This document shows positions 1,608 through 64,000 of a stretch of 64,000 bases of DNA, piece by piece. Below the pieces are notes generated by a model that saw only the letters and a program-made list of their open reading frames with translations, ran no database searches and was not told the origin of the DNA. A program made the translations under genes and the position numbers. Origin of the DNA: Planctomycetota bacterium (lineage in GTDB: Bacteria; Planctomycetota; UBA1135; UBA2386); contig OZ245838.1 of the NCBI GenBank assembly GCA_965228735.1, positions 3,872,001-3,936,000 of the forward strand, in the 5' to 3' direction. Each line of letters starts with the position of its first letter. Within the stretch, counting starts at the first letter, position 1.

Positions 1608-3125
1608 TCAGCCTGAATCGCGAGGCTCGCCCTCCGCCGCCGCTTCCCATTCCTGCCGCGTGCGCTCGACGCCGGCCTCGAGGTCGACGATCGGCTTGTC
1701 ATAGTCGACCCCGAGCATCTGCCGCTCGAGCGGCGGCACGGTCCACGGTGCGTGCACGGTGTCGCGCCCGAGCAGGGCGAACTCCGGACACCAGCGCTTC
1801 ACGTAGTCGCCCTCTTTGTCGTACTTCCTGGCCTGGGTCTCGATGCTGAACCAGCGGAAGCCGCGCGCGTCGTTGCCGACGCCGGCGACGTAGCTCCAGT
1901 TGCCCCAGTTGCTCGCGACGTCGTAGTCGACGAGCTGCGACTCGAACCACTCCGCGCCCCAACGCCAGTCGATCCCGAGGTGCTTCGTGAGGAAGCTGCC
2001 GACGATCTGCCGGCCGCGGTTGGACACGAACCCGGTCGCGAGCAGCTCTCGCATCAACGCGTCGACGAGCGGAATGCCGGTGCGGCCCGTGCGCCAGGCT
2101 TCGAACGCCGCGTCGTCGTGCCGCCACGGCACGGGCCGACCCTGCAGCCCGGACGGCCAGAACAACCTTGCACCGTGCTTCTGGAGCACGAGCTGGAAGA
2201 AGTCGCGCCAGAGCAGCTCGAACGTCAGCCAGTACGTCGAGTCGTTCTTGACGCGCTCCCGTTCGTAGCGCTCGACCTCGCTCTGGACGCGACGCGGCGA
2301 GATGCAGCCGAGCGCGAGCCACGGCGCGAGTCGCGAGGAGAAGTCGGCGCCGTGCAGACCGTTGCGCGTGGCCTTGTAGTCGCGCAAACGATCGCGCTCG
2401 AACGCCCACTGCGCGAGCCGTTCGCGCGCCGCGGCCTCGCCGCCGACGAACGTGAACGCCGCGCGGTCGTCGACCACCGGCTCGCGCAGCTCGAGGTCGG
2501 AGAGCTCCGGCAGTTCACCCGCGCCGCCGCTGGCGACATCGGGCACGACCCCCCGCACCTTCTCGACGGGATCGACCGGCGCCGCGAAGCATCGCGCCCG
2601 TTCGACACGCTGGCGAAACGCCGTGAACACCCCCGGCAGTTCGGCGACCTGGAACGGCAGGTCGGCGAGCTCGAACAGCGTGCGGTCCCAGTGGAGCCGC
2701 AACGCGCACCCCGCATCCGCGAGGGCGGCCGCGACAGCCTGTTCGATGTCCTGCTCTTCCGTGCCGACGAGCCGATGCGCATGGATGCGCGTGAGGCCGA
2801 GCTCGCGGGCGAGCGCCGGCAGAACGTCCTCGGGCCGGCCACGCCGAACGACGAGCTCGCCGCCGATCGCGCGCAGGGTCGCGCGCAGATCGGCGAGCGC
2901 TTCACGCAGGAACCGCGCGCGCCACGACCCCGTGCGCGGGGCACCGATCAGCGGCGTGGCGCCGAACTCGCGCGGGTCGACGCAGTAGACGCAGAGCACC
3001 GGGCGATCCTCGCCGGCGCGGCTCTGGGCCGCCGCCGCGCGCAGCGCCGCGTGGTCGTCGATCCGCAGGTCGCGCCGGAACCACACGGCGACCGGCGCGC
3101 CGGAGTCGTCGGTGCTCGTAGTCAT
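1608..3125 (-). CDS. Cryptochrome DASH / DNA photolyase family protein
   Basis: VWFRRDLRIDDH, YKATRNGLHGADFSSRLAPWLALGCISPR, STYWLTFELLWRDFF, SNRGRQIV, DYDVASNWGNWSYVAGVGND; start placed at ATG 3125, which overlaps the nei stop (ATGA). Confidence 0.93.
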   Translation of the reverse strand: MTTSTDDSGAPVAVWFRRDLRIDDHAALRAAAAQSRAGEDRPVLCVYCVDPREFGATPLIGAPRTGSWRARFLREALADLRATLRAIGGELVVRRGRPEDVLPALARELGLTRIHAHRLVGTEEQDIEQAVAAALADAGCALRLHWDRTLFELADLPFQVAELPGVFTAFRQRVERARCFAAPVDPVEKVRGVVPDVASGGAGELPELSDLELREPVVDDRAAFTFVGGEAAARERLAQWAFERDRLRDYKATRNGLHGADFSSRLAPWLALGCISPRRVQSEVERYERERVKNDSTYWLTFELLWRDFFQLVLQKHGARLFWPSGLQGRPVPWRHDDAAFEAWRTGRTGIPLVDALMRELLATGFVSNRGRQIVGSFLTKHLGIDWRWGAEWFESQLVDYDVASNWGNWSYVAGVGNDARGFRWFSIETQARKYDKEGDYVKRWCPEFALLGRDTVHAPWTVPPLERQMLGVDYDKPIVDLEAGVERTRQEWEAAAEGEPRDSG

Positions 3126-3943
3126 CGCGCCTGACATGCCGGACACGCGTAGAGCCGTCGCCCCGCGCTGGTCTGCTTCTCGATCTGTTCACCACACAGC
3201 CGACACGGCTTGTTCGCGCGGGCGAAGACCCAGTGCCGATAGTCGCGCCGCGGCACGCCCTCGGCCCGCAACCGACGGGCGTCGTCGGGGTCGTTGGTGA
3301 TGCCGCGCGTGCGGTATGCCTGCCGCGCGACGTCGCGGATGCGAAGGGCGAGATCGGTGCGCTGATTGGCCGCGAGATCGCACGGCCGCAGTGCCGGGTC
3401 GAGCCGGGCCAGGAACAGGATCTCGCTCCGCAGATAGTTGCCGAGTCCGCCGACGAAGCTCTGGTCGAGCAGCAGCGCGCCGAGCGAGCGACGCGTGAAC
3501 CGCCGATCGACGAGGCGGCGCTCGATGTCACGGAGGTGCGTGCCATCGTCGAGCACGTCGGGACCGAGCTTCTGGAGGAACGGATGCTCGTCCAGTTCGT
3601 CGTCGGCGAGCACCTCGATCTCCGACGCGCTGTAGAGCAATGCCGAGTGCGCGCCGGTGTGCACCGCGAACCGCAGCTGCCGGTTGGTCTTCGGCTCCTG
3701 CCCGCGTGGCTTCACGTACCAGCGGCCGTAGAGCTGGTTGTGCGAGTAGACGTTGAGCCCCCGTTCGAACCGCACGAGCATCGCCTTCCCACGCGGCTCG
3801 ACGGCGCGCACCGTGCGGCCCTGCAGCGTCGCGGCGAACGGCCGCAGTTGGTCGAACGCGAAGAACACGGACTCCGCCCGCTCGCCGGCCAGAACCCGCG
3901 CGATCTTGTCGGCTTCCTGACGGATCTCGGGACCTTCGGGCAT
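3122..3943 (-). CDS. nei: Endonuclease VIII (Fpg/Nei DNA glycosylase)
   Basis: N-terminal PEGPE, RGKAML, SHNQLYGRW, H2TH motif GLGNYLRSEILF, C-terminal CxxC...CxxC zinc finger. Confidence 0.92.
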   Translation of the reverse strand: MPEGPEIRQEADKIARVLAGERAESVFFAFDQLRPFAATLQGRTVRAVEPRGKAMLVRFERGLNVYSHNQLYGRWYVKPRGQEPKTNRQLRFAVHTGAHSALLYSASEIEVLADDELDEHPFLQKLGPDVLDDGTHLRDIERRLVDRRFTRRSLGALLLDQSFVGGLGNYLRSEILFLARLDPALRPCDLAANQRTDLALRIRDVARQAYRTRGITNDPDDARRLRAEGVPRRDYRHWVFARANKPCRLCGEQIEKQTSAGRRLYACPACQAR

Positions 3944-6651: not shown

Positions 6652-7470
6652 ATCGAACTCCGCGCCGTCACCTACCTCGCCCCGGGGATCCCGCTGGCGT
6701 TCTTCGAACGCGTCGTCGAGCACCTCGGCGAAGCGCTCGGGCTCGCGACGTCGGTGACGAGCGAGACGAGCAACTCCGGGCCGATGGCCGGCGACCACGA
6801 CCCGTTCGCCGCGGGCGAAGCCGACCTCGGGTTCCTGTGCTCGCCGTCGATGCTCTACCTGCGCAGCCTGCCGCAGCCGTCGGTCGAGCTGTTGCCGGCG
6901 GGGTTCGTGTTCGGTGATGACCGCAACTCGGGCACGGAGCCCGTCTATTACTCGGACGTGATCGTGCGTCGGGATCACCCGGCCTCCTCGCTCGCCGACC
7001 TCGAGGGCACGACCTGGGGCTACAACGACGAGTGCTCGCTGTCGGGCTACTTCGCGACGCTGCAGGGCCTGCGGGAGATCGGTTGCACGACCGAGTTCTT
7101 CGGCAGGCGACACCGCACGGGCTCGCACCTCGCGTCCCTCGCTGGCGTGCTCGACGGCACGATCGACGCCGCCGCCATCGATTCGACGACCATGGGGCTG
7201 TGGCGGCGGGATAACCCGGAACGGGCCGCCGACCTGCGCGTAATCCGCTCCTGGGGGCCGTTCCCCATCCAGCCGATCGTCGTCCGCACCGGCCTCGACA
7301 GCGCGATCAAGACGTCTCTTGCCAGTGAACTCTTGCGTGTCGACTGCGACACGAGCACCCTCGGCCTCTGTTCGTTCGGGCTCGAACGCATCGTCCCGAT
7401 CGACGAAGACGCCTACGCCGACGAAGCGCAGCAGCTGCGCGCCCTCGGCCAACTCCCGCCCAGCCCATGA
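6652..7470 (+). CDS. PhnD/SsuA-type substrate-binding-fold protein, no signal peptide; start uncertain (ATC 6652 or GTG 6754)
   Basis: DLGFLCSP, PVYYSDVIVRRD, WGYNDECSLSGY, TGSHLASLAGV..G..DAAAIDS, WGPFPIQPIVV; frame is open from 6631 and reads IELRAVTYLAPG upstream of the first GTG. Confidence 0.75.
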   Translation: MELRAVTYLAPGIPLAFFERVVEHLGEALGLATSVTSETSNSGPMAGDHDPFAAGEADLGFLCSPSMLYLRSLPQPSVELLPAGFVFGDDRNSGTEPVYYSDVIVRRDHPASSLADLEGTTWGYNDECSLSGYFATLQGLREIGCTTEFFGRRHRTGSHLASLAGVLDGTIDAAAIDSTTMGLWRRDNPERAADLRVIRSWGPFPIQPIVVRTGLDSAIKTSLASELLRVDCDTSTLGLCSFGLERIVPIDEDAYADEAQQLRALGQLPPSP

Positions 7471-8672
7471 GCCTCTCCCTCGCCGCCGTCGATCGTCAGC
7501 AGCTGGCGCAAGACTTCCGCGCGACGCGGGCGCAGACCCTCGCCCTCTGCGAACCGCTCGCCCCCGAAGACATGGTCGTGCAGACCATGCCGGAGGTCAG
7601 CCCGACGAAGTGGCACCTCGCGCATGTCACGTGGTTCTTCGAGACCATGGTGCTCGCGCGGTTCGCTGGCGACTACGAGCCGTTCGACCGCCGCTTCCAC
7701 GCGCTGTTCAACTCGTACTACCAGGCGCTCGGCCGCCCGTTCCCGCGCGCTCAGCGCGGCAAACTCTCCCGCCCGACCGTCGCGGAGATCATCGCCTATC
7801 GCGAGCACGTCGATGACGCGATGGAGCGGTTGCTCGAAGGCGCCGAAGCGGCCGACCTCGCGGCCATCACCGAGATCGTGACGCTCGGCCTGCACCACGA
7901 GCAGCAGCACCAGGAGCTGCTCGTGATGGATATCCTGCACGTGCTCGCGAGCAATCCGCTGCATCCGGCGTACGACGCCGAGCCGCCGGCCGAGCCGACC
8001 CCGCCGCCGGCCGAGTGGTTCGAGAGCCGCGTCGCGAACACGACGGTCGGGCACGCTGGCACGGGCTTCCACTACGACAACGAAGGCCCGCGTCACTCCG
8101 TGCCGCTGCAACCGTTCGCGATCTGCAACCGGCTCGTGACGAACTGCGAATTCGCCCGGTTCATCGCGGACGACGGGTATCGGCGCCCGGAGCTGTGGCT
8201 CGCCGACGGCTGGGAGTGGCTGCACGAAGAACGCGTCGAGGCGCCGCTCTACTGGCGCCGCGCGGCGGACGAAGCGTGGCTCGAGACCACGTTGCACGGC
8301 CAGCACGAGTTGCGAGCCGACGCGCCGGTGTGTCACGTGAGCTACTACGAGGCCGACGCGTTCGCGCGCTGGTCGGAGTGTCGCCTGCCGACCGAGTTCG
8401 AATGGGAGCACGCGGCCGCCCAGGGCGCCCTCGCACAGGCCAGCGGCGAGGTCTGGCAGTGGACCGCGAGCCCATACTCCGCCTACCCCGGCTACCGCCC
8501 GTTCACGGGCCCCCTCGGCGAGTACAACGGCAAGTTCATGGCCAACCAGTTCGTGCTGCGCGGTGGCTGCCACGCGACGCCGCGCGGTCACGCCCGCCGC
8601 ACCTACCGCAACTTCTACTACCCGCAGCAGCGGTGGATGTTCGCGGGGCTGCGGCTCGCGCGGGACGTCTAG
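7467..8672 (+). CDS. egtB: Ergothioneine biosynthesis sulfoxide synthase EgtB
   Basis: QTMPEVSPTKWHLAHVTWFFE, LFNSYY, HHEQQHQELL (Fe ligands), FGE-like C-domain GEYNGKFM..VLRGG, TYRNFYYP..RWMFAGLRLA. Confidence 0.9.
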   Translation: MSLSLAAVDRQQLAQDFRATRAQTLALCEPLAPEDMVVQTMPEVSPTKWHLAHVTWFFETMVLARFAGDYEPFDRRFHALFNSYYQALGRPFPRAQRGKLSRPTVAEIIAYREHVDDAMERLLEGAEAADLAAITEIVTLGLHHEQQHQELLVMDILHVLASNPLHPAYDAEPPAEPTPPPAEWFESRVANTTVGHAGTGFHYDNEGPRHSVPLQPFAICNRLVTNCEFARFIADDGYRRPELWLADGWEWLHEERVEAPLYWRRAADEAWLETTLHGQHELRADAPVCHVSYYEADAFARWSECRLPTEFEWEHAAAQGALAQASGEVWQWTASPYSAYPGYRPFTGPLGEYNGKFMANQFVLRGGCHATPRGHARRTYRNFYYPQQRWMFAGLRLARDV

Positions 8673-8756: not shown

Positions 8757-11210
8757 ATGCGATCGCCCGCCCTCGTCACGCTGCTCGCCGCGCTCTCTCT
8801 CATCACCGGCGCCGTCGCTCCCGCTCAGGACGACAACGCCGCCGCCGACGAAAAGGGCAAGCTCCAGATGATCGCCGAGTTCACGGCCGGGATGGAGCAC
8901 CTCGCCGGCTTCGTCGACCTCTACGTCGACGCCGAGAAGGACGCGATCCACCTGCGCATCGACCGCTTCGGAGAGGACCTGCTCTACGCCACCGCGCACG
9001 CGTCCGGCCTCGGCAGCAATCCGATCGGGCTCGATCGCGGCTCGCTCGGACCGCAGCACGTGATCGCGTTCCGACGCGCCGGGCGCAAGGTGCTCGTGAT
9101 GACGAAGAACCTCGGCTTCCGCGCCACCTCGGACAACGCCCGCGAACGCCTGGCCGTGGCCGAGTCGTTCGCACCCGGCGTGCTGGCGTCCCTGCCGATC
9201 AAGGCCGCGGACGAGGACGCGGTCGTCGTCGACGCGACGAAGTTCTTCCTCCGCGATGCGACCGGCACGGCGCGGCGGCTGTCGAGCAACGGGGCGACCT
9301 ACAAGGTCGACCGCGAGCGCAGCGCGCTCTGGCTCGAACGAACGAAGGCGTTCCCGCAGAACACCGAGGTCGAGGTGCTGCTGACGTTCGTGAGCAGCGG
9401 CAGCAATCGCGAGGTCGCGCGCACCGCGGCCGACGGCCAGGCGGTCGCGCTGCGTCAGCACCACAGCTTCATCCAGCTGCCCGACCGCAGCTACACGCCG
9501 CGCCGCTTCGACCCGCGCATCGGCTACTTCGGCCCGCAGTTCCTCGACTACGCGGCGCCGATCGGCCAGTCGATGCATCGCCACTACATCGCGCGGCACC
9601 GCCTGGAGAAGAAGGACCCGAACGCGGCCGTGAGCCCCGCCGTCGAACCGCTGGTCTACTACATCGATCCCGGCACTCCCGAGCCCGTGCGGTCGGCCCT
9701 CCTCGAGGGCGCGATGTGGTGGGCCGAGGCGTTCGAGGCCGCCGGTTTCCGCGACGCGTTCCAGGTCCGGATCCTGCCGACCACCGCCGACCCGATGGAC
9801 GTGCGCTACAACATGATCCACTGGGTGCACCGCCAGACGCGTGGCTGGTCCTACGGTGCGAGCATCCGCGATCCGCGCACGGGTGAGATCATCAAGGGCA
9901 ACGTGCTGCTCGGTTCGCTGCGCGTGCGCCAGGACCACCTCAAGTTCATCGGCCTCGAGTCGCCGTACAGCGTTGATGGCTGCGCGGTGTCCGGCTCGCC
10001 CGGCGTGCAGCACCTCGTGCGCGACGACACCCTCGCACGCGAGACGGCACTGGCCCGCATCCGGCAGCTGGCGGCGCACGAGGTCGGGCACACGCTCGGC
10101 CTGTCGCACAACTTCGCCGCGAGCACCTACGGGCGCGCGTCGGTGATGGACTATCCGGCACCGCTCGTGTCGGTCGGCGAGAACGACGAACTCGACTTCA
10201 GCAACGCGTACGACACGGGCATCGGCGAGTACGACATCTGGGCGATCCAGTACGGGTACTCGCAGTTCGCGCCGGGCGCTGACGAAGCCGCCGAGCTGCA
10301 GAAGATCGTCACGGACGGTCTGCGACGCGGCTACGCCTTCCTCACCGATCAGGACGCGCGCGCCGCGAGCTCGGCCCAGCCGCTCGCGAGCCTCTGGGAC
10401 AACGGCCGCGATCCGGTCGAACAGCTCGCGCTCGACCTTCGGGTGCGTGCCATCGGGCTGCGCAAGTTCGGCATCGATGCGCTGCGGCCGGGGCAGACGC
10501 TCGCGTCGCTCGAGGACGCGCTCGTGCCGCTCTACCTGCATCACCGCTATCAGCTCGAGGCCGCGATCAAGGTGATCGGCGGCGTCGATTTCCGCCACGC
10601 GGTGAAGGGCGACGGCCAGGCCCCGGTCACGCCCGTCGACGTCGAGCGGCAACGCCGCGCGCTGCGGGCCGCGGTGGCGACCCTGAAGCCGGAGTTCCTG
10701 CGGCTCGATCCCCGCATCGCGCGGCTGATCCCACCGGCGCCGCCCGGCCACCCGAGCACGGCCGAGCGCTTCGCGCGCTGGACGGGGCAGCCGCTCGATC
10801 CGGTGGCGCTCGCCGTGATCGCCGCCGACCTCACGCTCGGCGGACTGCTGGAACCGCATCGCCTGGCGCGCCTCGCGCATCGCACGGACGGCGGCGGCCT
10901 CACCGCCCATGAACTGATCTCGGCGATCGCCGCGGCCGTGCGCCTCGAGCTGGCCACCCCGATGATGGACGCGGTCCGGGAACGCTACGCCGAGCACCTC
11001 ATGGCGCTCGCCGACAACGCCGGCACGAGCAGCACGGTTCGCGACCTGGCCGAGCTCGCGCTGCGCGAGCATGCGATGTTCGTGAGCAACTCGCTCGGTC
11101 ACCGCATCCGCCGCTTCCTCGACAACCCCGATCGCAGCCTCCAGCGCGGCCGCGCACCCGCGACCCCGCCCGGGTCGCCCATCGGGTCGTCCGACGGGAG
11201 GGGACGGTAG
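8757..11210 (+). CDS. Secreted zinc-dependent metalloprotease (DUF5117/DUF4953, EcxA-like)
   Basis: Signal peptide; PRRFDPRIGYF, DPRTGEIIKG, HEVGHTLGLSHNF zinc motif, SVMDYP Met-turn. Confidence 0.9.
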   Translation: MRSPALVTLLAALSLITGAVAPAQDDNAAADEKGKLQMIAEFTAGMEHLAGFVDLYVDAEKDAIHLRIDRFGEDLLYATAHASGLGSNPIGLDRGSLGPQHVIAFRRAGRKVLVMTKNLGFRATSDNARERLAVAESFAPGVLASLPIKAADEDAVVVDATKFFLRDATGTARRLSSNGATYKVDRERSALWLERTKAFPQNTEVEVLLTFVSSGSNREVARTAADGQAVALRQHHSFIQLPDRSYTPRRFDPRIGYFGPQFLDYAAPIGQSMHRHYIARHRLEKKDPNAAVSPAVEPLVYYIDPGTPEPVRSALLEGAMWWAEAFEAAGFRDAFQVRILPTTADPMDVRYNMIHWVHRQTRGWSYGASIRDPRTGEIIKGNVLLGSLRVRQDHLKFIGLESPYSVDGCAVSGSPGVQHLVRDDTLARETALARIRQLAAHEVGHTLGLSHNFAASTYGRASVMDYPAPLVSVGENDELDFSNAYDTGIGEYDIWAIQYGYSQFAPGADEAAELQKIVTDGLRRGYAFLTDQDARAASSAQPLASLWDNGRDPVEQLALDLRVRAIGLRKFGIDALRPGQTLASLEDALVPLYLHHRYQLEAAIKVIGGVDFRHAVKGDGQAPVTPVDVERQRRALRAAVATLKPEFLRLDPRIARLIPPAPPGHPSTAERFARWTGQPLDPVALAVIAADLTLGGLLEPHRLARLAHRTDGGGLTAHELISAIAAAVRLELATPMMDAVRERYAEHLMALADNAGTSSTVRDLAELALREHAMFVSNSLGHRIRRFLDNPDRSLQRGRAPATPPGSPIGSSDGRGR

Positions 11211-11265
11211 CGCCTGAGGATCGCGGGGCAGGCCGACGCCGGGGCGAGAAACGCTCGCCCACGTT

Positions 11266-11291
11266 GCATCCCGGCGGCGCTTCGGCACGAA
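11266..11291 (+). promoter_or_regulatory. Putative ECF sigma promoter GCATCC-N16-CGAA upstream of selenoprotein operon
   Basis: Identical boxes and spacing to the motif at 3970-3995; intergenic and co-oriented with the ATG at 11346. Confidence 0.5.
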
Positions 11292-11345
11292 AAATGCGTT
11301 GGGTGGCCCGGGTCGCATTCTGACCCGGCTTGCAACACTGAACTC

Positions 11346-12089
11346 ATGGACCGGATTCCCGACAGCTTGTGGCGCGATTTTCCGCTGGCCGGCCGCCATC
11401 TCGGCAGCGACCGGCTCGCGGCGGAGCTCGGCGACACCGACACGCTGCTCGTGTTCCTGCGCCACCTGGGTTGAATCTTCACCCGCGAACTGCTGCGCGA
11501 CGTGCTCGCCGCAACCAAGGACAGCGGGATGCCGACACCGGTCTTCGTCCACCGGGCGAGCGTCGAGGCCGGCGACGAGTTCTTCGCGGAACGCGCGCCG
11601 GACCAGCGCGCGATCGCGGACCCCGACGGCGCACTCTTCCGCGGATTCGGCCTGGAGCGCGGCTCGCTCCTGCAGCTGCTCGGGCCACGCGTGTGGTGGC
11701 GCGGCCTCGTCGCGCTCTTCAAGGGCAACTTCGTCGGCTTGCCGACGGGCAACGAGACCCAGATGCCGGGCGCGTTCGTCGTTCGCGGCCAGCAAATCGT
11801 GTGGGCCCACCGCGCGCGCCACTCCGGCGACCACCCGGACCTCGATGCGATGCGCCGTGCGCTCGACCCGAACGCCGAACCTGCGGCCGAGACCGCGGCG
11901 AAGACCGCTCCGAAGGCCGCCGGCAACACGGCTCGCAAGATCCGCTCCCTCGCAGCCACCCACCGCAAGATCCTCGCCGAGGCCCAGCAGATGCAGCGCG
12001 ATGGCGATCTGCGGACGTTCGCCCAACTCACGGCCGAGGCCGACGAGGTCGCGAAGGAGCTCGACCGGCTCGAGCAGGGACAGACGTGA
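11346..12089 (+). CDS. Putative selenoprotein: AhpC/TSA-2 (SelL/SelU-related) peroxiredoxin-like protein, Sec43, with C-terminal DUF6435-like helical domain
   Basis: ATG 11346 is in frame with the 11502-12089 ORF; the only interruption is TGA 11472-11474 in LLVFLRHLG*IFTRE, where the family has FLRHxGCxFCRE; IADPDGALFRGFGLERG and QMPGAFVV follow; 247 aa with readthrough. Confidence 0.85.
11494..11513 (+). promoter_or_regulatory. Candidate bacterial SECIS hairpin
   Basis: TGC-GCGA/loop CGTGC/TCGC-(C bulge)-GCA; the apical loop starts 26 nt after the UGA and has G at its second position. Confidence 0.5.
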
Positions 12090-12511
12090 GTCCGGGGCCC
12101 GCTGCCGGCCAACCCGCTCCGCGATGGGCGCGCAACTGGCTGCTCGCGGCCGCGGCCTACAACCTGATCTGGGGCGCGTTCATCGTCCTCGCGCCCACCG
12201 CGCTGTTCGCGTTCGCCGACATGGAGCCGCCGCGCTACATGGGCATCTGGCAGTGCGTCGGAATGATCGTCGGGGTCTACGGCGTGGGCTATGCGATCGC
12301 CGCGCGCGATCCGTATCGGCACTGGCCGATCGTTCTCGTCGGCCTGCTCGGCAAAGTGCTCGGGCCGATCGGCTTCGTCGACGCTGCGCTCAGCGGCCAG
12401 CTGCCGTGGCGCTTCGGCTGGACGATCCTGACGAACGACCTGCTGTGGTGGCCCGCGTTCGCGTGGATCCTGTGGCGCGCGCGCCGCGCGCTCCTCGCGG
12501 GCGGTCGCTAG
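12086..12511 (+). CDS. Membrane protein, partner domain of SelL-related/AhpC redox proteins
   Basis: GTG overlaps the upstream TGA (GTGA); YNLIWG, IWQCVGMIVGVYGVGY, HWPIVLVGLLGKVLGPIGF, TNDLLWW; about four TM helices. Confidence 0.8.
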   Translation: MSPGPAAGQPAPRWARNWLLAAAAYNLIWGAFIVLAPTALFAFADMEPPRYMGIWQCVGMIVGVYGVGYAIAARDPYRHWPIVLVGLLGKVLGPIGFVDAALSGQLPWRFGWTILTNDLLWWPAFAWILWRARRALLAGGR

Positions 12512-12524
12512 TGCGGTGTGTCCG

Positions 12525-12956
12525 ATGGCGCTGACCGACTGGGCCCTGCTGACGCACGCATTCGCGACGCTCGCGATGACGGGCGTCATCTGGTTCGTGC
12601 AGGTCGTGCACTATCCACTGATGGCGCGCGTCGGGAGCGACGGGTTCGCGACGTACGAGAAGGCGCACACCGCGCGAACGACCGTCGTCGTCGCACCGCT
12701 GATGCTCGTCGAGCTCGCCACCGCGGCCTGGCTGGCGATCTCGCCGCCCGTCGGCACGGCGACGATCGCCTGGCTCGGCCTCGACCTGCTCGCCGCGACG
12801 TGGCTGTCGACCGCCCTCCTCCAGGTGCCGTGCCACCGCCGCCTCGAGGCCGGCTTCGATCCGGCCGTCCTGCAGCGCCTCGTCCGCACCAACTGGTTGC
12901 GAACGCTCGCCTGGACGGGTCGCGCCATCATCGCGCTCGCGCTCCTCGTGGCCTGA
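12525..12956 (+). CDS. Conserved hypothetical membrane protein
   Basis: MTGVIWFVQVVHYPL, VVAPLMLVE, LQVPCHRRL, LVRTNWLRT; 3-4 TM; 13 nt downstream of the previous gene. Confidence 0.75.
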   Translation: MALTDWALLTHAFATLAMTGVIWFVQVVHYPLMARVGSDGFATYEKAHTARTTVVVAPLMLVELATAAWLAISPPVGTATIAWLGLDLLAATWLSTALLQVPCHRRLEAGFDPAVLQRLVRTNWLRTLAWTGRAIIALALLVA

Positions 12957-12984
12957 GGGGCCGCGCTGGCGCTATCGTGCGGCG

Positions 12985-13194
12985 ATGCCGTACGTGAACG
13001 TCCAGATCACCGCGGGCGCGACCCGCGACCAGAAGTCGAAGCTCGTGGCCGACATCACTGATGCCCTCGTCACCGTGCTCGGCAAGAAGCCGGAACACAC
13101 CCACATCGTGATTCAGGAGATCCTCGAGGAGAACTGGGGCTACGCCGGCCAGCTCACGGACGACTGGAAGAAGTCCCAGGCCGGCGGTTCGTAA
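12985..13194 (+). CDS. 4-oxalocrotonate tautomerase family protein
   Basis: Catalytic N-terminal Pro (MPYVNVQIT), 69 aa, ENWGYAG. Confidence 0.9.
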   Translation: MPYVNVQITAGATRDQKSKLVADITDALVTVLGKKPEHTHIVIQEILEENWGYAGQLTDDWKKSQAGGS

Positions 13195-13212
13195 CCGCCG
13201 CGCCTGGCGGGG

Positions 13213-13277
13213 TTCTGGAACAGTCGTCCAAAAACCATGTCCGCGTTCTTGACTTATCAGTCCAGAACGACGATATT
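13213..13277 (+). promoter_or_regulatory. sigma70 promoter TTGACT-N17-GATATT overlapped by TetR-type operator palindromes
   Basis: -35 at 13249-13254, -10 at 13272-13277, ATG 6 nt later; imperfect palindromes TTCTGGAACAGTCGTCCAAAA (13213) and TTCTTGACTTATCAGTCCAGAA (13246). Confidence 0.6.
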
Positions 13278-13283
13278 CCGGCC

Positions 13284-13868
13284 ATGGCGCGTCCCCGCGA
13301 GTTCGACGAGAACGAGGTCCTTGACCGGGCCATGCTGCAGTTCTGGCAGCACGGCTTCGAGGGCACTTCGATCCACGATCTCGTCGACCGCACCCGCCTG
13401 GGACGCCAGAGCCTCTACAACGCGTTCGGCGACAAACGCGCGATCTTCCTGCGGGCACTGCAGCGCTACGACGACAAGACCAACGCGATGCTCGCGCCGA
13501 TGCTGCGGCCCGACGCCGACCTGCAGACCGTCCGAGACTACGTCGAAGGCGCGATCGCACTGCAGAAGGAGCACCGCTGCCGCGGCTGCCTCGTGACCCG
13601 CAGCGCGCTCGAGCTCGGCAGCGCCGATCCCGACATCCGGAACGCCGTTGCGCGCACGGGCCGCCGCGTGCGCAAGGCCATCGCCAACGCGCTCGCGGGC
13701 GCGGCCGATGCCGGCGAGGCCCGCCGCGACCAGTCGCCGACCGAGCTCGCCGACTACGTGTTCGCCACGCTCAACGGGCTCGCCAGCCTCGCGGGCACGG
13801 GCGCCGGCGAGAAGCAGGCGCGCCGCGTCGTCGACCTGATGTTCGCATCCCTGGCTGCGGCCACCTGA
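13284..13868 (+). CDS. TetR/AcrR family transcriptional regulator
   Basis: MARPREFD..LDRAM..FWQHGFEGTSIHDL..LYNAFGDKRAIF HTH; RGCLVT. Confidence 0.92.
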   Translation: MARPREFDENEVLDRAMLQFWQHGFEGTSIHDLVDRTRLGRQSLYNAFGDKRAIFLRALQRYDDKTNAMLAPMLRPDADLQTVRDYVEGAIALQKEHRCRGCLVTRSALELGSADPDIRNAVARTGRRVRKAIANALAGAADAGEARRDQSPTELADYVFATLNGLASLAGTGAGEKQARRVVDLMFASLAAAT

Positions 13869-60675: not shown

Positions 60676-61998
60676 TCACTTCTCGAAGCGGAGGTGGCAG
60701 ACGCTGATGTGGCGTTCGCGGAAGCCGGCTTCGCAGTAGGCGAAGTAGAACGACCAGGCGCGGAGGAGTTCGTCGCCCGCGTCGCGGCCGCCCGCCAGGG
60801 TGGCCACCTCGTCGCGCTTCGTCTGCCACGTCTCGCGCCAGCGCTGCAGCGTGTCCGCGTAGTGCAGGCCGAAGTCCTCGAGGCGGGTCAGGCGCAGGTC
60901 GGTGTGGCGCGTCGCCGCGGCCGTGATGGCCGAGACCGACGGGATGAAGCTGCCAGGGAAGACGTGACGCTTGATGTAGTCGACGTGGCGCAGCGCGGAC
61001 TCGTAGTGCTGGTCGCGGATCGTGATCGCCTGCAGCCCGAGGACGCCGCCGCGGCGCAGGCGCGCGTCACAGGTCTTCAGGTACTCCGGCAGATACTGCG
61101 CGCCGACGGCTTCGATCATCTCGCACGAGATCAGCTTGTCGAACGTGCCGCCCAGCTCGCGGTAGTCGCGTTGCAACGCCGCCACGCGATCGGTCAGTCC
61201 GGCGGCAGCCACGCGCCGCCGCGCCGTCTCGAACTGGTTGCTCGAGATCGTCGTCGTCGTCACGTGCGCGTCGAACTCGGCGGCGGCGGTGATCGCGAGG
61301 CTGCCCCAGCCGGTGCCGATCTCGAGGAGGCGCTCGCCGGGCGCCAGATCGACGAGCCGGCAGAGTCGGCGCAGCTTGTGCCGTTGCGCGTCCTCGAGCG
61401 ACTGGTTCGGTGATTCGAACCACGCCGACGAGTAGGTCATCGTCGGATCGAGGAACAGCTCGAACAGCTCGTCGCTGAGATCGTAGTGCGCCGCGATGTT
61501 GCGCTTGCTGCCGATCTGACTGTTGCGTCGCAGGGCGTGACCGAGGCGCAGCAGCCACTGTCGCGGCGTGCTCCACAGCGAGCGGTCGACGTCGAGCAAC
61601 ACCTCGCGGTCGCGTACGAGCAGCCGCAGAACGGTGACGAGGTCGTCGGTATCCCAGGCCCCGCCGACGAACGCCTCGCCCGCGCCGATCGCGCCCGAGG
61701 TCGCGAGCGCGGAATAGAACGCCGGGTCCCGGATCCAGATCCTGGCGCAACCGAGCGGGCCCGCCGCATCGCCGAAGCGCGCCGTGCCCGCGAAGTCGTG
61801 GATCTCGAGCGCGCCGCTCCGCAGCTGCCGAAGGCGCGCGTGAATGCGCTCCCGCAGCACGCGCTGCCACCAGCTGGCGCGGGCAGCGGATGGCGCCCGC
61901 CAACGCTCGGTCGGGCGCGAGATCGGCGCCGGTGCCGGTCGCGCCGCGCCGCGACGCTGCGGTCGACCGGCCGGAGAAACGAGGATGGGGGCGGTCAT
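60676..61998 (-). CDS. cfa: Cyclopropane-fatty-acyl-phospholipid synthase family SAM methyltransferase (UfaM/CfaS-like)
   Basis: NIAAHYDLS..LFLDPTMTYSSA, LEIGTGWG, EMIEAVG, YFAYCEAGF; ATG overlaps the upstream stop. Confidence 0.9.
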   Translation of the reverse strand: MTAPILVSPAGRPQRRGAARPAPAPISRPTERWRAPSAARASWWQRVLRERIHARLRQLRSGALEIHDFAGTARFGDAAGPLGCARIWIRDPAFYSALATSGAIGAGEAFVGGAWDTDDLVTVLRLLVRDREVLLDVDRSLWSTPRQWLLRLGHALRRNSQIGSKRNIAAHYDLSDELFELFLDPTMTYSSAWFESPNQSLEDAQRHKLRRLCRLVDLAPGERLLEIGTGWGSLAITAAAEFDAHVTTTTISSNQFETARRRVAAAGLTDRVAALQRDYRELGGTFDKLISCEMIEAVGAQYLPEYLKTCDARLRRGGVLGLQAITIRDQHYESALRHVDYIKRHVFPGSFIPSVSAITAAATRHTDLRLTRLEDFGLHYADTLQRWRETWQTKRDEVATLAGGRDAGDELLRAWSFYFAYCEAGFRERHISVCHLRFEK

Positions 61999-62849
61999 GT
62001 GCTTGCGCGCGCCTTCTGGGGATGGGCGTAGAACGGCGCCCGCCGCAGCCAGAGCCGCGCCGCGTGCCAATAGATGCCGGCAATGATCTTCAGGCTCAGC
62101 CACGGGTGCCGAACGAACGCGCGCGCGAGCGCACCCGTTGACCACGGCTGCCGCGTCATGACTAGCGTCGCATCGAACGCCTTGCCGTCCTCGCCGTGGT
62201 TCTCCATGTGCACCGCGAGCCGGTCACCCGGCGGCGAGAACCGCCAGCGATACTCGTGCTCCATCGGCTGGAACGGACTCACGTGGAACGCCTTGTCGAA
62301 CGTGCGCCGCAGCCGTCCGCGTTCGTCCCGTGCCACGACGTAGTGATGTCGCTCCCCCCACGGCGTGTTCGTGATCTCCGCGAGGACCGCGACCGGCCGT
62401 TCCTCCGCATCGCGGTCGAAGCAGTAGTAGAACGTGACCGGGTTGAACGAGTAGCCGAAGCACCGCAGGCCGGTGAGCATGCGCACCGCCCCGGTCGGCC
62501 GCGCGCCCGTCGCCCGTTCGACCGCGTCCTTCACCGCGTCCCCGAGGGGCTGCGCGGGATCGCCGAAGTAGTCCGCGCGGCGGAAGCGCATCGGCGCCGG
62601 CCGCTTCGCCGACCAGAACCACCGCCCGGCGAACGCCGCGTCGATCTCGTCGACGTCGAGATAGACGTAGGCCAGCCGCACGGCAAAGCCGTGATCCACC
62701 GCGTCGAATCGGCGGTGTCGCACGGTTCCGAAGTAGACGCCGCTATGCCGGACGGCACCGTTCTCGACAGCACCGTTCTCGACGGCGCCGCTCTCGACGG
62801 GGCTGCTCGGAACGACACCGCGTCCGACCTCGTTCGCCGCCACGCTCAT
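61995..62849 (-). CDS. DUF1365 family protein (UfaO-like)
   Basis: GTVRHRRF, FGYSFNPVTFYYC, EITNTPWGERHHY, KAFHVSPF, IYWHAARLW. Confidence 0.9.
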   Translation of the reverse strand: MSVAANEVGRGVVPSSPVESGAVENGAVENGAVRHSGVYFGTVRHRRFDAVDHGFAVRLAYVYLDVDEIDAAFAGRWFWSAKRPAPMRFRRADYFGDPAQPLGDAVKDAVERATGARPTGAVRMLTGLRCFGYSFNPVTFYYCFDRDAEERPVAVLAEITNTPWGERHHYVVARDERGRLRRTFDKAFHVSPFQPMEHEYRWRFSPPGDRLAVHMENHGEDGKAFDATLVMTRQPWSTGALARAFVRHPWLSLKIIAGIYWHAARLWLRRAPFYAHPQKARAST

Positions 62850-64000
62850 GCGACGACGAGCTCCGGCACGGTCTTAGGGCCCACACCGCTGTCGATGCCG
62901 AACGCACGCGCGACGCGCAGCGCTGCCTTGACGCCGTCCTCGTGAAAGCCGAACCCGCACCACGCGCCACAGAACCACACGCGGTTGCTGCCGCTGACGG
63001 CGTCGAGTCGCCCCTGCGCCGCGACACCGGCTGCGTCGAACACCGGATGGTGATACTCGAAGCGCTGCACGATCTTCTGCGGATCGATCGCGTCGGTGCT
63101 GTTCAGGCTCACGAGATAGCGCTCGTCGGTTCGCAGCCCCATCAGCGTGTTCATGTCGTAGGTCACCGTCGCGCAATCCGCCTCTGACTTCGGCAACCGG
63201 TAGTTCCACGCCGACCACGCAGCGCGGCGCTCGGGCAACTGCCGTTCGTCGGTGTGCAGGACCACGTCGTTGGGCTGGTACGGGATCGCCGCGAGCAGCT
63301 CGCGTTCGGCCGGGCTGGGATCGACGAGCATCCGCAGCGCGGTGTCGCTGTGCGTCGCGAGCACCGCGTGATCGAAGCGCTCGGGCTCGCGCCCCATGAC
63401 ACGAACGTCGACCCCGGCCGCGGCGCGCTCGACCGCGACGACCGGCGACCGCAGCCGGATGCGATCCGCGAACGTCCGGGTCAGCGGTTCGAGGTATTCG
63501 CGCGAACCGCCGACGACCGTGTACCACTGCGGCCGGCCGCGGACCTGCAGCATCCCGTGGTTCTTGAAGAAGCGCACGAAGAAGCGGGCCGGCATGGCGG
63601 CGAGCGCCTCGGGTCGAGCCGACCAGATCGCGGCCATCATTGGCACGAGGTACCACTCGGCGAACGCCGACCCGAGCCTGGCCCGTTCGAGCACCTCCGC
63701 GAGCGTGAGGTCGGTGTCCTCGAACGACTCGGCCAGATCGTGAAAGCGCAGGATGTCGCGCACCATCCGCAGGAAGCGCGGCCGCAGCAGGTTGCGCTTC
63801 TGGGCGAACAGCCCGCGCAGGCCCGTGCCGCAGTATTCGAGGCCAGTGCGCTCACAGTGCACCGAGAAACTCATCGTCGACGGCCGCAACGCGACGCCGA
63901 GGCGCGCGAGCAACGCGAAGAACTCGGGATACGTTCGGTCGTTGCAGACGATGAACCCCGTGTCGACCGCGACCGACTCGGACCCGCCGCCGGCCTTCTT
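62846..64000 (-). CDS. FAD-dependent oxidoreductase (UfaD/RSP1091-like), 5' end outside the window
   Basis: Frame open to the window edge: VDTGFIVCNDRTYP, PMMAAIWS, FFKNHGML, AAWSAWNY, YHHPVF, FCGAWCGFGFHEDG. Confidence 0.9.
   Translation of the reverse strand, partial: KKAGGGSESVAVDTGFIVCNDRTYPEFFALLARLGVALRPSTMSFSVHCERTGLEYCGTGLRGLFAQKRNLLRPRFLRMVRDILRFHDLAESFEDTDLTLAEVLERARLGSAFAEWYLVPMMAAIWSARPEALAAMPARFFVRFFKNHGMLQVRGRPQWYTVVGGSREYLEPLTRTFADRIRLRSPVVAVERAAAGVDVRVMGREPERFDHAVLATHSDTALRMLVDPSPAERELLAAIPYQPNDVVLHTDERQLPERRAAWSAWNYRLPKSEADCATVTYDMNTLMGLRTDERYLVSLNSTDAIDPQKIVQRFEYHHPVFDAAGVAAQGRLDAVSGSNRVWFCGAWCGFGFHEDGVKAALRVARAFGIDSGVGPKTVPELVVA

Follow-up and report, generated by a model that had tools for sequence, protein, structure and literature searches.

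A predicted cysteine-free UxxT variant of the SelL-related selenoprotein family in a Planctomycetota bacterium

Background

Glutathione peroxidases (GPx, PF00255) have catalytic Gln, Trp and Asn residues around their selenocysteine (Sec). Sec-containing forms are also noted by the curators of the family NF040769, 'SelL-related redox protein' (SelL_rel_redox), to which the gene described here is compared.

Related selenoproteins have been tabulated in inventories of prokaryotic genomes. In the inventory passages (PMC9312934, PMC13188914, PMC2398784), an 'AhpC/TSA family protein' of PF13911/cd02970 is given with a UxxS motif and a 'Prx-like thiol:disulfide oxidoreductase' with UxxC or UxxU, while UxxT is assigned to GPx-like, OsmC-like, distant Grx-like and DUF3179 proteins; UxxT for the PF13911 domain is absent from these passages. 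A model of the bacterial SECIS element set out in part of one of them specifies a loop of 3-9 nt, a stem of 4-16 bp, a spacing of 16-37 nt, a G in the first two loop positions and an energy of at most -7.5 kcal/mol (PMC13188914). Among proteins of known structure the closest system is human prostamide/PGF synthase (PRXL2B; PDB 9US9, 9USA). As described in sections of the report on this enzyme (PMC12938796), it has a CxxC motif with an intramolecular disulfide cycle, attack is proposed for Cys44 beside Arg40/Arg41, and docking brings the peroxide to the first motif residue and to Arg41, with Ser47 in a backbone hydrogen bond.

Here we describe a gene in a 64,000-nucleotide stretch of DNA from a Planctomycetota bacterium (the window) that a sequence-only reading had proposed to encode a UGA-recoded, peroxiredoxin-like selenoprotein with a UxxT active site.

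Results

Reading frame and sequence support

The gene occupies 11346..12089 (+) of the window and would encode 247 amino acids if UGA43 is read as Sec. From ATG 11346, a start that agrees with homologues opening MDRIP or MERIP, the forward frame runs to the TGA stop at 12087-12089 with a sole interruption, the TGA at 11472..11474 (+), codon 43, in the context TLLVFLRHLG*IFTRE. This codon, the predicted Sec43, forms position 1 of a UxxT motif in which Thr46 (ACC, 11481..11483, +) replaces the second Cys, and the frame contains no Cys codon. Translation bore out the sequence-only reading on all these points, namely the frame and its length, the single TGA at codon 43, the UxxT motif and the absence of Cys. 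It was also right that ORF callers truncate the product: the standard ORF listing starts at GTG 11502 and loses the active site, and the ten closest matches in the protein database begin after the UGA. GC3 was 0.88 in the 42 codons before the UGA and 0.90 in the 204 codons after it, and G+C by codon position was the same on both sides.

Assembled contigs (not raw reads) from three of four runs span the TGA codon, and no alternative letter was seen at 11472. Contigs X3 and X6 may be source DNA, X9 comes from another strain and shows 10 differences, each located beyond 12121, downstream of the gene, and X11 (labelled coral metagenome) does not cover the codon. A promoter and terminator scan of 11150-13300 found no promoter before the selenoprotein gene and no terminator; one sigma-70-like site was placed before the TetR gene.

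Sec machinery and conservation of the TGA codon

The genes selA, selB and selD and tRNA-Sec (selC) were all detected above cut-off in the single-contig genome (93% complete), and the genome's own selD carries a TGA. A homologue of the gene was found in 30 of the 61 related genomes searched. Position 43 proved to be an invariant column, with TGA in 26 and Cys in one of the 27 readable loci from other genomes; loci L025 and L028 gave no alignment and lie outside this count. A family search enlarged the set to 42 distinct genes, this gene and its paralogue among them, with TGA in 40 and Cys in two. Identity to the 39 other TGA genes falls to about 27%, and their frames are otherwise open, free of the further disabling mutations that would have marked them as pseudogenes. 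Class-wide, 89 of 92 matches in 339 genomes had one TGA, the column itself being read only for fetched loci. Full-length relatives in the protein database have Cys at column 43, apart from P0087, where a W may be a translation-table artefact. Tests of 14 relatives, among them all 10 other UxxT genomes, found selA and tRNA-Sec in every one; two of the 14 had been chosen for their Cys forms, so the presence of the machinery does not predict the codon. The aligned Cys in homologues, the conserved TGA and the complete Sec machinery together support the earlier interpretation as a selenoprotein. From these sequence comparisons, decoding of UGA43 as Sec appears very nearly certain, and this is a real and almost certainly functional selenoprotein gene of a curated family.

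A crude scan of the same genome turned up 22 candidates for in-frame TGA codons, which would be a large selenoproteome for a single genome; 16 of the 22 were placed by eye in redox-type motifs. These motifs are UxxC, TxxU, CxxU-like and, at 2123, another UxxT, and most candidates have a G-loop hairpin 20-31 nt further on, downstream of the TGA (for example C1:848558+, 2784758+, 4375233+, 6546711+, 5361969-, 3714212-, 6694255-, 4985410-, 3485980- and 2123-).

Candidate SECIS hairpin

A candidate bacterial SECIS element lies at 11482..11528 (+). Its predicted fold has an upper stem at 11494-11513 and an apical loop, CGUGC, at 11501-11505, 26 nt after the UGA. With a 5-nt loop, 7 bp with one bulge, a G at loop position 2, the 26-nt spacing and an energy of -7.9 kcal/mol, this hairpin fits the published bacterial model outlined above, the margin in energy being narrow (-7.9 against -7.5 kcal/mol). 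Its stability was not significant against chance (z -0.77), since 45 of 200 shuffles folded equally well and 28 of 40 synonymous shuffles were as good, and stability was therefore rejected as proof by itself. The hairpin claimed by the sequence-only reading thus stands in its position and its G-containing loop, and is weak evidence when taken by itself.

Comparable loops were seen elsewhere. The selD loop, CGGGC, lies at the same +26 spacing, two other UGA genes of the genome have a CGUGC or CGUGA loop at +26, and the homologue in genome G001 carries the same CGUGC loop on an unbroken stem. When the 40 TGA genes are compared, covariation is seen in a stem that encloses an AGKU loop at +25 (65% paired; matched by 0 of 500 shuffles, and the best among 7 registers), and at least four expected pairs at this family register were present in 23 of 40 TGA genes against 16 of 82 Cys genes, both the covariation and the TGA/Cys contrast being inflated by kinship and by G+C (0.71 vs 0.59). 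A strong stem at the family register is missing in 17 of the 40 TGA genes, and the register used by the stem of this gene is shifted by three columns from the AGKU loop commonest in the family.

Family membership and predicted fold

Residues 11-170 (11376..11855, +) form a thioredoxin-fold redox domain that matches NF040769 at 129.2 bits (cut-off 120) when Sec is read as Cys, covering positions 5-170 of the 173 in the model, and at 121.5 bits when the stop is read through; PF13911 (AhpC-TSA_2) matched with an E value of 3.6e-10. The protein shares with NF040769 the FLRHxG[C/U] site, and many UGA-bearing members occur in the same class. It differs from them in having UxxT in place of the commoner [U/C]xxC, no Cys, a C-terminal DUF6435 domain and a clade of its own. 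The suggestion that a hidden, new type of selenoprotein had been uncovered does not hold, because the protein passes the NF040769 cut-off and PF13911/cd02970 selenoproteins already stand in the inventory passages. Compared with the PF13911 selenoproteins as described in those tables (not as representative sequences), it shares the Pfam domain, Sec at motif position 1 and the loss of the second Cys, already known there as UxxS, and differs in having UxxT. The tabulated Prx-like thiol:disulfide oxidoreductase (PF00578) is different, since the protein here has UxxT and no PF00578 match.

The predicted structure (pLDDT 93.6) was a thioredoxin fold with the UGA site at the start of helix 44-57, followed by a loose linker and a two-helix tail. 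Fold matching of the model returned human prostamide/PGF synthase (9USA) as the best match (E 1.1e-5, TM 0.74 on the target), then PrxQ and AhpE, with the first thioredoxin at rank 45. The synthase is also the only solved sequence relative (E 3.5e-7), and its LRRFGC aligns with LRHLGU. It differs in its CxxC, there being no CxxC dithiol here, in an identity of 19% and in its eukaryotic substrate, PGH2. The modelled fold is thus of the PRXL2/prostamide-synthase type and not that of GPx.

The sequence-only reading had called the active site glutathione-peroxidase-like. The comparison stands for the four-residue UxxT motif and probably for the logic of one Sec recycled in trans. It fails for family and fold: PF00255 gave no match (E up to 1), no GPx was among the 37 fold matches listed, the fold being that of prostamide/PGF synthase and PrxQ, and 37 of 80 Cys-form loci likewise have a Thr there. 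GPx membership was rejected on the first two of these grounds. Membership of the true peroxiredoxins was likewise rejected, PxxxTxx[C/U] being absent and residues 36-43 reading VFLRHLGU.

The UxxT clade and the loss of cysteines

The 40 TGA genes comprised 24 UxxC, 15 UxxT and one UxxA, and the ten best further loci of the class, one of them a repeat, were all UxxC. When both motif positions were masked, a quick version of the tree, which left out L026 (a 92-aa fragment) and 29 of 37 CxxT rows, placed 14 UxxT genes of four genera and 11 genomes on a single branch (SH-aLRT 99); the fifteenth UxxT gene, in genome G013, had a separate origin on this tree. Thr46 is common to the clade of 14, and 13 of these genes contain no Cys at all. 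The single distant, long-branched UxxA member, L034 (genome G035), also has no Cys.

A first contig search with a single protein as query found no relative. A later search pattern required Cys, so that all 80 loci it returned are necessarily Cys forms and say nothing about the ratio of Sec to Cys; 37 of them were CxxT and five CxxS. These forms, found in Verrucomicrobiota fusions and in Kapaibacteria, belong to the same family and have likewise exchanged the second motif Cys for Thr or Ser, but they carry Cys rather than Sec, have separate origins on the tree and, in all 42 cases, keep another Cys in the domain, the 42 representing a few clades and not independent cases. Thr at motif position 4 was rejected as a unique trait in view of the 37 CxxT loci and the independent UxxT gene in G013. 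In the Verrucomicrobiota loci L086-L146, an N-terminal pair of Cys residues is conserved in fused CxxT forms, which also have Cys at +53 and +86; these are candidate resolving thiols.

Downstream membrane genes and the C-terminal tail

The stop codon overlaps, as GTGA, a gene for a 141-aa membrane protein at 12086..12511 (+) with a single Cys57 in a WQC motif. Fused SelL-related proteins have a homologous domain at their N-terminus, to which the product is up to 71% identical (P0098, P0109, P0121, P0079 and P0083), and 117 of 120 homologues of the product keep WQC. A third gene of the likely operon, at 12516..12956 (+), encodes a membrane protein of no known family; its homologues follow the selenoprotein gene or the membrane partner in genomes G001, G002 and G082, and also follow five fused Cys-form genes. 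Pfam and NCBIfam gave no match for either membrane product, and the Atlas held automatic names only for the first.

The gene of the 12086-12511 type adjoins three of 14 UxxT genes and is present in eight of the 10 other UxxT genomes; it was not found with the 12086-12511 query in the remaining two, G002 (88% complete) and G072 (92%). It occurs in 40 of 91 family genomes, mostly without a UxxT gene and often beside a stand-alone DUF6435 gene. Fusions with WQC have an intact CxxC (5/5), and 30 fused CxxT forms lack WQC. The paralogue in this genome, L038 (G000:C1:6884750-6885655, -), has CxxC and is fused to the membrane domain without the WQC cysteine. A homologue of the membrane gene at G076:C302:11309-11710 (-) has one TGA inside the match; if this TGA sits at the WQC cysteine, the membrane partner would be a selenoprotein too.

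Residues 200-242 (11943..12071, +), after a flexible linker, form a fused DUF6435/Lacal_2735-like two-helix domain (PF20027, E 5.1e-11), with predicted helices at 190-219 and 222-243 and low pLDDT at 186-188. Neither this domain nor the coupled membrane gene had been seen in the sequence-only reading. DUF6435 is fused in four of 14 UxxT genes and missing from 10, and occurs in 63 of 339 genomes, stand-alone in most; it was therefore rejected as an essential part. Given that it is fused in so few cases and is often alone beside the membrane gene, the tail would probably be an optional passenger acquired from the adjacent gene. DUF6435 and WQC membrane genes were also observed as pairs no more than about 0.5 kb apart, and separate from the selenoprotein gene, at G033:C80, G030:C4, G011:C5, G105:C53, G109:C145, G107:C120, G111:C35 and G036:C42.

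Wider neighbourhood

A cluster of desaturase, amine-oxidase-like, DUF1365 and CMAS genes adjoins four of the 12 wide UxxT loci, and a photolyase-related gene adjoins the UxxT gene in G001 and G002. The cluster resembles the ufaM/ufaO/ufaD genes for furan fatty acids, UfaO containing DUF1365 in the part of the description drawn on here (PMC7380195). Of 35 other TGA genes, 12 have the same markers within 1.5 kb, against two of 80 Cys genes within 3 kb, the Cys comparison set belonging to other phyla. Among the UxxT genes themselves the count of 7/14 with a marker is circular, as the markers were chosen from these loci; the other seven have no such neighbour, and 49 kb separate the selenoprotein gene of this genome from its CMAS/DUF1365 cluster. 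No paper linking DUF1365 to such stress was found in the open literature searched. The names of near homologues and the domains of a relative point to a host that is probably a planctomycete.

Further genes were noted elsewhere in the window. CMAS methyltransferase, DUF1365 and amine-oxidase-like genes lie at 60676-64000 (-), with a desaturase gene directly outside it. Genes for a photolyase/cryptochrome and an Fpg/Nei-type glycosylase stand in tandem at 1608-3943 (-), 7-8 kb from the selenoprotein gene. At 6754-8672 (+) an egtB gene (TIGR03440 above cut-off; SenA below) is preceded by a phosphonate-type binding protein gene; egtD is elsewhere in the genome.

Discussion

The evidence for recoding also bears on the other ways in which the UGA might be explained. 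Were the TGA a true stop, through decay or a sequence error, the gene would be dead or its product made only from GTG 11502, which would accord with the weak hairpin and with public gene calls that open downstream of the UGA; but the same TGA recurs in the 39 other, otherwise open genes and in the contig of a second strain, the 42 upstream codons are conserved and coding-like, and the genome holds the full machinery, so that this explanation is scarcely credible. We give just as little credence to UGA being read as Trp or Cys through a variant code or leaky read-through. The W in P0087, possibly an artefact, would agree with it, yet the other full-length homologues have Cys and not Trp at this column, UGA also terminates the gene at 12087, where homologues end, and both tRNA-Sec and SelB are present. 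Even taken jointly, a dead gene or another amino acid at the UGA is very improbable.

For the function of the product we favour on balance, from comparative analysis, a wholly predicted explanation in which the cysteine-free protein would reduce peroxides with a single Sec and be recharged by a thiol from outside. SelB with Sec-tRNA would, in all likelihood, bind the hairpin 26 nt downstream and insert Sec43. The Sec43 selenolate, at the N-terminus of helix 44-57 and beside an invariant Arg39-His40, may then quite plausibly attack an organic or lipid hydroperoxide or endoperoxide, by analogy with Cys44 beside Arg40/Arg41 in prostamide/PGF synthase. Thr46 would serve as a structural stand-in that keeps the hydrogen-bonding role of the second Cys. 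Because Thr46 cannot form a selenenylsulfide, the oxidised Sec would need a reductant in trans, for which glutathione or a thioredoxin is the likeliest candidate; gshB is present in the genome, and the choice of reductant is a guess. To judge from the neighbouring genes, the setting would probably be light or oxygen stress of membranes. The proposed function is suggested by prostamide/PGF synthase, which is both the only solved sequence relative and the top fold match, with PrxQ next; against it stand the identity of only 19% to that enzyme and the absence of PxxxTxxU, which means that the usual peroxidase signature is missing.

The position of Sec at the start of a thioredoxin-type motif, together with the missing peroxiredoxin TxxU motif and the presence of gshB, would also suit a selenoprotein that is a monothiol disulfide reductase or isomerase, or a deglutathionylase of glutaredoxin type, and no activity was found in the literature searched for bacterial members of the family. 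We consider this unlikely, since the closest solved relative reduces a lipid endoperoxide and the next fold matches are the PrxQ and AhpE peroxidases, ahead of any thioredoxin. A different source of the resolving thiol is offered by the membrane protein encoded at 12086-12511, whose Cys57 might resolve oxidised Sec43 in a two-protein relay, a split version of the fusions between membrane domain and CxxC enzyme. The GTGA overlap, the same domain fused N-terminally to Cys relatives (the paralogue of this genome among them), the near-invariant WQC and the occurrence of the membrane gene in most other UxxT genomes speak for such a relay. It is nevertheless decidedly unlikely: adjacency holds for 3/14 UxxT genes only, the query found no membrane gene in G002 or G072, most genomes with this gene have no UxxT gene and often pair it with stand-alone DUF6435, and WQC occurs in fusions that keep CxxC and is missing from fused CxxT forms, whereas a resolving role would predict the reverse. 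Cys57 as an obligatory resolver was thereby weakened. Equally doubtful is the wider scenario in which a PRXL2-type dithiol enzyme became a cysteine-free, single-selenium lipid-peroxide reductase in the service of the furan-fatty-acid/photolyase stress module, recharged by the near-invariant Cys of the membrane partner in a split Sec/Cys relay, with Sec allowing the loss of every internal resolving Cys; the Cys versions examined never lose every internal Cys (0/42 CxxT/CxxS forms).

What is new is a modest variant, namely a UxxT clade free of cysteine, together with an optional tail and a membrane neighbour; the recoding and the family were already known. In the open literature, no paper was found on a UxxT form of this family, on NF040769 or on DUF6435/Lacal_2735.

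Conclusions

At the least, the annotation of these genes is corrected. Public calls open after the UGA, and one database protein, P0007, is named 'DUF6435 family protein' after its tail only, so that the active site is hidden. The locus also provides an initial functional clue to DUF6435 and to two unnamed membrane families. The family forms a natural series of CxxC, UxxC, CxxT, CxxS, UxxT and UxxA enzymes in which only Sec forms are without any other Cys, and whether Sec frees a thioredoxin-fold enzyme from its resolving cysteine is thus testable in one small soluble scaffold.
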